This document shows positions 34,113 through 34,406 of a stretch of 64,000 bases of DNA, piece after piece. The position numbers and the translations under genes are program-made. The stretch is from a virus, in the IMG/VR virus record IMGVR_UViG_3300045125_000101, positions 7,823 through 71,822 of that record; one strand, 5' to 3'. Under the pieces are notes generated by a model. It was given only the letters and a program-made list of their open reading frames with translations. It had not been told where the DNA came from and did no database searches. Position 1 is the stretch's first letter. Each line of letters starts with the position of its first letter.

Positions 34113-34406
34113 TCAATCCAATCTTATTGTTGAACCCTTGAAGAATATACCTTTGCTTACATTGCCAGATGCTTTAGTTCCATTTGGAGCCGTTGCTTCA
34201 AATCCAGTATTGTAATAATCGCGATTACCATTGAACCATTTATATCCAGTAATCTTTACATCTTTATATCCGCTGGCTTGAAGTACTCTGGTTGCTCCAT
34301 CGGCATCAACGGCGATTACAGGAGCAAGTATTGTAATACCAACTACTCCTACTAGGAAAATAACGCCAAGAACTTCTATCAACGAAAATCCTTTGTTGTT
34401 TTTCAT
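34113..34406 (-). CDS. protein with a type IV prepilin-like leader
   Basis: MKNNKG|FSLIE followed by a hydrophobic helix. Confidence 0.7.
   Translation of the reverse strand: MKNNKGFSLIEVLGVIFLVGVVGITILAPVIAVDADGATRVLQASGYKDVKITGYKWFNGNRDYYNTGFEATAPNGTKASGNVSKGIFFKGSTIRLD

Follow-up and report, generated by a model that had tools for sequence, protein, structure and literature searches.

Exchangeable N-terminal anchors in a phage protein family: a gp39.1-type head on a prepilin-type leader and stalk

The gene and its surroundings

The window analysed here is a stretch of 64,000 nucleotides (positions 7,823 to 71,822 of the IMG/VR record IMGVR_UViG_3300045125_000101), taken from the 138-kb record of an uncultured T4-like lake phage, which is 64% complete according to CheckV. 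On the minus strand at 34113-34406, exactly the interval given in the original prediction, there is an open reading frame of 97 codons plus a stop codon. Its product, called P0001 here, begins with MKNNKG/FSLIE (the slash marks the predicted cut), continues with about 22 hydrophobic residues ending in A-P-V-I-A-V, and is completed by a polar domain of 64 residues. The run that follows E+5 reads V-L-G-V-I-F-L-V-G-V-V-G-I-T-I-L-A-P-V-I-A-V. The features of the locus are as follows.

34113-34406, minus strand: complete gene of P0001, 97 codons plus the stop codon TGA at 34113-34115
34389-34406, minus strand: leader peptide M-K-N-N-K-G (codons 1-6), with a predicted prepilin-peptidase cut after G6; PF07963 score above the cut-off
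34308-34388, minus strand: hydrophobic stalk resembling pilin alpha1N (residues 7-33), with F+1, L+3, E+5 (GAA at 34374-34376) and about 22 hydrophobic residues
34116-34307, minus strand: predicted globular periplasmic head (residues 34-97) of the PHROG 902 / T4-like gp39.1 family, modelled as helix 35-44 plus a four-stranded antiparallel sheet
34414-34743, minus strand: upstream neighbour, a gene for about 116 aa that a frameshift divides into frames of 61 aa and 38 aa, with its stop 7 nt before the start of P0001

The frame of P0001 is open upstream as far as a TTG at 34490, and the database gene call for the record (P0004, 120 aa) uses an upstream ATG, which is 23 codons too early. Full-length metagenomic homologues with 57-79% identity were found in independent assemblies with the same start and stop, and all of them begin at the Met equivalent to the ATG at 34406. 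Since the homologues start at the same Met and the neighbouring gene stops 7 nt before this ATG, we take 34406 as the right start codon. A longer frame of 120 or 125 aa was rejected, because its extra upstream codons are part of the neighbouring frameshifted gene. Both pieces of that neighbour match a single ORF which is intact in a related contig (L005:5638-5988), and the frameshift between them is probably a sequencing error. The gene for P0001 is intact. As there are frameshifts in neighbouring genes of the contig, it can be asked whether P0001 is itself a frameshift artefact or not a real gene. This is extremely improbable. It is refuted by the independent homologues just described and by a large family that is strongly conserved over thousands of phage sequences, and the confident structural model given below also speaks against it.

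In L005 the gene is located upstream of the same neighbours (a metallophosphoesterase, a heme oxygenase and others) with a different local order, and the loci L004 and L007 have one small ORF beside the gene in common. Small proteins that look like coiled coils flank the gene at 33964-34104 and 34733-34996 (both minus strand), with others at 35084-35402 and 37150-37632, and further short leucine-zipper-like ORFs lie beyond them. Two of the flanking proteins share the peptide A-T-I-Q-D-E-N-T-R-L-R-A-E-N. The corresponding DNA differs at 9 of 41 nt, nearly all at third codon positions, and therefore the two proteins are diverged paralogues and not a DNA repeat. A mobile cassette bounded by direct repeats in the flanking DNA was also considered and rejected, as no such repeats were found and the similar flanking peptides are explained by the paralogues.

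From the sequence matches, this phage is far from any cultured phage, and nothing matched when the 3 kb surrounding the gene were compared with cultured phages by megablast. A 463-aa helicase has matches of only 21-33% identity to unrelated phages, which are uninformative for lineage and host. For the DUF1501 gene at 21029-22171 (minus strand), a narrow genome scan returned Melioribacteraceae (45%), Saprospiraceae (36-41%) and one Verrucomicrobiota MAG (38%). A host of the Verrucomicrobia or Planctomycetes type, which would be rich in prepilin-type proteins, was considered as the source of the signal and dropped because these DUF1501 matches are mixed; a literature search on this explanation also found nothing.

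Prepilin-type leader and stalk

A class III signal is a hydrophilic leader of 6-26 aa ending in Gly or Ala, followed after the cut by about 21 mainly hydrophobic residues with Glu at +5 and usually Phe at +1 (PMC4471445, PMC8179133). The leader is cleaved on the cytoplasmic side by a dedicated peptidase, and pilins, once processed, stay in the cytoplasmic membrane up to their assembly by the motor; Glu5 is dispensable for cleavage and required for homopolymer assembly (PMC4471445, PMC8179133). Prepilin peptidases are present in nearly all bacteria (PMC4471445). P0001 agrees with this definition on both sides of the predicted cut. Its leader has 6 residues, a net charge of +2 and G at -1, and the mature chain has F+1, L+3 and E+5, with 22 hydrophobic residues between E+5 and D28.

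The Pfam N_methyl profile (PF07963) scores 27.6 bits (E 2e-6) on residues 1-25 of P0001, above its gathering cut-off of 21.2, while TIGR02532 is just below its own cut-off (15.9 vs 16.3). When the whole 138-kb record was searched with PF07963 in six frames, the site at 34113-34406 was the sole match (29.1 bits, E 1.5e-7), and a regular-expression scan for class III sites in all six frames of the record gave no second credible site. The motif is common to 10 metagenomic homologues in the same clade as P0001 and 2 in a separate branch, and so it is due neither to chance nor to a sequencing error. By sequence criteria, the N-terminus of P0001 is a bona fide class III (prepilin-type) signal, which bears out the first part of the original prediction, namely a class III leader followed by about 20 hydrophobic residues.

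The PDB sequence matches of the stalk are also type IV pilins, for example the Geobacter pilin (E 0.012) and MshA (E 0.034). With the homologue P0006, 21 of the 25 PDB matches listed (E <= 10), including the 17 best, are type IV pilins or pseudopilins, the best having an E value of 2.7e-4. These matches cover the N-terminal stalk, and the best alignments extend into the head without convincing identity. No PF01478 peptidase and no second pilin turned up in profile searches of the 138-kb record (64% complete). As this phage record has no prepilin peptidase, any processing of P0001 must be done by the host.

Family and predicted fold of the head

The head belongs to a different family. The phrog_902 profile matches residues 34-96 of P0001 with an E value of 3.8e-13, and a tblastn search matched 1059 cultured phage records, nearly all of them T4-like phages of enterobacteria, in the head only and at 44-51% identity. 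A profile search of 1.84 billion representative proteins gave 2460 clusters (50%-identity clusters) at E <= 1e-3. The head contains the invariant motifs I-T-G-Y, T-x-F-x-A and K-G-S-T-x-R, and 12 invariant columns are in common with the T4-like members. The homologue is annotated as gp39.1 in JS98 and as 'lipoprotein' in EAWsc9 and PG7. In T4-like phages, the gp39.1 locus is in the early region, beside the topoisomerase gene 39 and near 39.2, goF, cef and motB. From these matches we assign P0001 to the gp39.1 / PHROG 902 family. It had been suggested that the globular part looks like a phage protein rather than a pilin, and this was confirmed: the head of P0001 has its homologues in the PHROG 902 phage lipoproteins and is unrelated to pilin heads, and P0001 is therefore not a pilin. 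A pattern scan of 185,000 bacterial genomes, which was a narrow scan, found no relative of the family, and the family looks phage-restricted. Our literature search for T4-like gp39.1 returned none, the single match for the term being a paper on an unrelated Thermus phage gp39.

The T4-like homologues start with a classical lipoprotein signal, for example ...A-V-S-L-V-G-C/T-D-A-D-N-A-T-R-V-L. Its lipobox Cys aligns exactly with the junction ...V-I-A-V/D-A-D-G-A-T-R-V-L of P0001, so that the stalk end A-P-V-I-A-V and the position where the lipoprotein homologues are cleaved at the lipobox are in register. P0001 has no cysteine at all, while the lipobox Cys and a Cys pair in the domain are typical of the family majority, and at least two head Cys are present in most lipobox members of the 193-member sample described in the next section. 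The lipobox and the Cys pair are a majority trait of the gp39.1 family and do not define homology.

An AlphaFold (AF2) model of P0001, built from an alignment of 50 sequences, has a mean pLDDT of 81.8. It consists of a helix at 9-31, a break at 32-34, a second helix at 35-44 and four antiparallel strands. Only about 10 helical residues are packed on the sheet in the model, compared with about 25 in pilins, where they are part of a continuous alpha1 of about 50. The predicted fold of the head is one helix on a four-stranded sheet, with a weak resemblance to cystatin/PepSY domains. The top structural match of the head is 5kph, a de novo designed beta-sheet protein (Z 6.4, rmsd 3.6, 67 aligned), followed by YpmB 2gu3 (Z 6.0, rmsd 2.4, 58 aligned), 4r80, the sister design of 5kph which is annotated as a cystatin fold (Z 5.7), the CD1622 lipoprotein (Z 5.1) and UipA (Z 4.8). 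All the structural matches are weak, with Z of 4.0-6.4 (below 8) and 3-21% identity, values that common arrangements also reach. Foldseek gave no match to the head with E < 0.7, a profile search against solved structures gave no relative of the head better than E 1.1, and P0001 has no Pfam PepSY match. There is no pilin among the structural matches listed for the head (Foldseek and Z-scored lists), which does not by itself exclude a pilin-like fold. Matches in the BFVD viral structures belong to the same family and are uncharacterised or called 'lipoprotein', and those in the protein atlas are 'Lipoprotein family protein' and hypothetical viral clusters with scores of 0.77-0.81.

N-terminal anchors across the family

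We sorted 193 sampled family members by their N-termini. Lipobox forms dominate (130 members), followed by a hydrophobic anchor or signal without the lipobox Cys (47); 12 members besides P0001 are of the prepilin type and 4 are truncated. A looser lipobox scan raised the first class to 137 of the 193. The +2 residue in these 137 members is Thr in 97, Ser in 21 and Asp in none. By the +2 sorting rule of E. coli, such lipoproteins would go to the outer membrane, which appears to be the site of the lipobox members of the family.

In the 13 prepilin-type members (P0001 included), L+3 and E+5 are invariant while the neighbouring residues vary. Position +1 is F in 11 of them and Y or H in the others, and it is followed by T or S at +2. 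Before the cut, at -1, 8 members have A and 5 have G. Of 50 aligned family members, 11 pass the Pfam N_methyl cut-off. Most prepilin-type homologues are known as protein sequences only, and a scan of metagenome loci gave a single prepilin-type locus (L056). The original prediction had raised the question whether homologues share the leader. This holds for the 12 other prepilin-type members of the 193; the majority has a lipobox instead, and the leaders of the nearest relatives are decayed, as shown in the next section.

Another conserved element is found just before the head. The motif P-x-x-[A/G] is conserved in all Cys-free forms regardless of the N-terminus, with P29 present in at least 90% of alignment A3. 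In the lake-metagenome clade of this alignment, the lipobox Cys is lost and both head Cys are replaced by Asn, in W-F-N-G-T and G-N-V-S. This loss of Cys may reflect a host without periplasmic disulfide formation. The head Cys pair is also lost in the lipobox forms P0072, P0138 and P0142. In P0191, an 89-aa protein from a second lineage with a prepilin-type N-terminus, there is no helix before the first strand, and the stalk is followed by a Gly-rich linker and then directly by the sheet.

Exchange of anchors

A maximum likelihood tree of the head was calculated from 69 columns, and its resolution is limited accordingly. P0001 is placed inside the cysteine-free lake-metagenome clade with support 98/91. 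The prepilin-type pair P0129/P0191, which begins with M-K-K-Q-N-G/F-T-L-I-E-L-L-V-V-L-A-I-V, is nested among Cys-containing lipobox forms with support 99/95. Because this pair sits apart from P0001 among lipobox forms, this head acquired a class III signal on at least two independent occasions.

The heads nearest to that of P0001 are 85-88% identical to it and have N-termini like M-K-T-N-N-K-G-T-T-L-G-A-L-L-V. These leaders align position for position with that of P0001 and keep K-G-x-T-L, with F+1 and E+5 absent, and we read them as a decayed class III motif. The exchange is more apparent when very similar heads are considered. The heads of P0009 and P0029 are 92% identical and their N-termini are unrelated (an M-P-Q-P-Y-D... 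anchor versus an 'NNK' form), and the five metagenome loci L050-L054 carry an identical head with three kinds of N-terminus. Since identical heads carry unrelated N-termini, the anchor is an exchangeable module. In L050-L054 and in P0009/P0029, the first 30 codons are seen to evolve or recombine much faster than the rest. The simplest history consistent with these sequences would be a lipobox ancestor, a replacement by the class III signal in the lake clade, and repeated decay or replacement afterwards.

Proposed function and alternatives

The comparative evidence leans to a reading in which P0001 is an early, membrane-tethered periplasmic effector. In this reading, to which we assign a probability of about 0.45, the head is the active part, the stalk is one of several swappable tethers, and no pilus polymerisation is needed. 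The lipoprotein (class II) signal of a gp39.1-type protein would have been swapped for a class III prepilin-type signal. From its sequence features, P0001 is very probably inserted into the host inner membrane with the N-terminus in and the head out, and the insertion would be Sec-dependent. Trimming by the host peptidase is rather likely; it would cut off M-K-N-N-K-G and probably methylate F+1. The mature protein of 91 residues would then stay in the inner membrane through its alpha1N-like stalk, like an unassembled pilin, and the 64-residue head at the periplasmic face would bind either a conserved component of the envelope or one that belongs to an incoming phage. The outcome, which is speculative, might be protection of the infected cell, for example by superinfection exclusion or envelope stabilisation. 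From the place and time at which such genes act in T4-like phages, our guesses for the role of the head are superinfection exclusion, envelope protection and inhibition of a periplasmic enzyme, and superinfection exclusion is a reasonable guess as a role for the whole family.

We prefer the tether because most relatives use lipid or plain anchors and the nearest ones have lost F+1 and E+5. Several considerations count against it. By the E. coli rule, most lipobox forms would be sorted to the outer membrane, while a pilin-type stalk keeps the head at the inner membrane; signal peptidase I might release the head at the conserved P-x-x-[A/G]; and the fold matches of the head are weak. Also, E+5 in a mere tether should drift, yet it is invariant together with L+3 in 13 of 13 members, which may indicate selection for contact with the pilus assembly machinery.

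This last point also speaks for a different explanation, in which P0001 imitates a pilin. After processing by PilD, it would be taken by the platform of the host type IV pilus or T2SS and be built into the filament or jam it, thereby blocking pilus-dependent superinfection or secretion, or carrying the head toward the outer membrane. As assembly depends on Glu5 and cleavage does not (PMC4471445), the conservation of this residue, along with L+3, F+1 in 11 of 13 and G or A at -1 in all prepilin-type members, points beyond cleavage. The stalks of the P0006 type are canonical, with pilins or pseudopilins as all of their best solved-structure matches, and the leader was gained twice independently. 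The modelled topology of a hydrophobic helix, a short helix and a four-stranded meander is consistent with the minimal pilin 'lollipop' (PMC4471445). There are precedents in P-FimU, which acts in pili to block phages, and in the truncated PilA of lytic Pseudomonas phages (PMC12952977). The pilin-type stalk would moreover be the sole anchor in the family that can be extracted from the inner membrane, most members appearing to be outer-membrane lipoproteins. On the other hand, the closest relatives are without F+1 and E+5 and their heads are still strongly conserved, lipoproteins make up about two thirds of the family, the head shows no homology to pilin heads and has no pilin in its listed structural matches, the helix of the model is interrupted at 32-34 with about 10 rather than about 25 residues packed on the sheet, and the phage record contains no partner minor pilins. 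We consider this explanation unlikely. It corresponds to the claim of the original prediction that the processed protein could enter or poison host pili or T2SS pseudopili. The claim was not supported by the comparative evidence, given that the same head is mostly found as a lipoprotein, that the nearest relatives have neither F+1 nor E+5, and that identical heads carry unrelated anchors; since E+5 does not vary over the 13 members, some contact with the pilus machinery may still occur. A related version, a 'Trojan pilin', is improbable as well. Here a host pilin leader and stalk would have been grafted onto a phage effector head at least two times, with the motor of the host type IV pilus or T2SS lifting the protein from the inner membrane to the outer-membrane site of its lipoprotein versions, or with the filament being capped or jammed by it so that rival pilus-dependent phages or secretion are blocked; if true, this would be an undescribed delivery route for phage effectors.

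The class III motif may instead be an unused relic. The N-terminus would then be an uncleaved signal-anchor, or a Sec signal cut by signal peptidase I after A-P-V-I-A to release a soluble head, and such a head could reach the same target at the outer-membrane side as the lipoprotein forms. The P-x-x-[A/G] preceding the head, which all Cys-free forms have in common with any N-terminus and which is in register with the lipobox cleavage site, fits this, as do the hypervariable N-termini on identical heads and the decayed motifs that are common in the nearest relatives. However, the hydrophobic run of about 22 residues is longer than that of a usual cleaved Sec signal and has the length expected for a membrane anchor, all 13 prepilin-type members have kept E+5, the motif scores above the curated Pfam cut-off, and the near-universal prepilin peptidases (PMC4471445) would probably cut such a site. 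We regard the relic as possible, though rather doubtful.

Comparison with known systems

The closest known system is the gp39.1 family itself (PHROG 902; JS98 gp39.1 and the EAWsc9/PG7 'lipoprotein'). Its members have a homologous head (44-56% identity), the same length, the same C-terminus and shared motifs, and their small genes lie among early genes that are non-essential. They differ in their class II lipobox (L-x-G/A-C with Thr/Ser at +2) and two head Cys, whereas P0001 has a class III signal and no Cys. The family sequences suggest that the pilin-type stalk is dispensable.

Phage-encoded pilus subunits include P-FimU in F10-like Pseudomonas prophages, P-PilA in Xylella prophages and a truncated PilA of 60 residues in lytic Pseudomonas phages (Sztanko et al. 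2026, PMC12952977). Of these, P-FimU becomes part of the pilus of the host and blocks competing phages, and virulent phages were likewise noted to have such genes (PMC12952977). The likeness to P0001 is a phage gene with a prepilin-type N-terminus. However, these subunits are whole or truncated copies of host pilins, while P0001 is pilin-like only in its leader and stalk and takes its head from a phage lipoprotein family.

Class III signals on non-pilin domains are found in the modular pilins (Raynaud et al. 2021, PMC8179133) and in the sugar-binding proteins of the archaeal bindosome (PMC4471445). As in P0001, a class III signal is joined there to a non-pilin domain, so the signal is usable to export or display modules. 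The modular pilins keep a complete pilin module, are cellular and are encoded with the pilus machinery, whereas P0001 has no pilin head, is 97 residues long and is encoded by a phage. With respect to the fold, PepSY/cystatin-like proteins (YpmB 2gu3, UipA 7atk/7ath, YpeB 5boi, CD1622 4exr and cystatins) also have a helix on a four-stranded antiparallel sheet. They are often tethered to a membrane or a lipid outside the cytoplasm and many are binders or inhibitors; their matches to the P0001 head are weak. For function, small early envelope proteins of phages such as T5 Llp, a lipoprotein of the outer membrane by which FhuA is blocked, and Imm and Sp of T4 give protection to the infected cell. 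All are small, are exported or lipid-anchored, come from early non-essential genes and act in the envelope. No relation of P0001 to them in sequence or fold was found, and we guess at a functional analogy only.

Phage-encoded pilins and class III signals on non-pilins are both already known, and phage-encoded pilus subunits have only recently been shown to act as anti-phage defences (PMC12952977). We found no description of a pilin leader and stalk combined with a head from a phage lipoprotein family, or of a three-way exchange of signal classes on one head. The design of P0001 differs from the known cases in that only the pilin leader and stalk are present, on the head of a very common and unstudied phage envelope family. 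This family amounts to a natural experiment, since one head of 64 residues occurs with a class II, a class III or a plain anchor, sometimes on near-identical heads, and so the effect of a class III signal on a non-pilin protein can be tested cleanly. It also illustrates how easily export signals are swapped by phages, and it flags the gp39.1 family, which is present in more than a thousand cultured T4-like genomes, as a candidate envelope effector. If the imitation of a pilin is true, it would give phages another, new way of interfering with pili or secretion; otherwise, it is a modest result on modular signal exchange.

A further observation concerns phage T4 itself (NC_000866, 5398-5701; L040:3399-3702), where the 5' end of gene 39.1 looks decayed. 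The annotated 65-aa product begins inside the domain. The frame upstream of it encodes a signal peptide in which the lipobox has been lost (...A-V-S-L-I-N-S-T-D-A-D, then a stop), followed by a frameshift. Laboratory T4 may be without an exported form of gp39.1, and the intact lipoprotein is found in close relatives of T4, for example P0042 and JS98.
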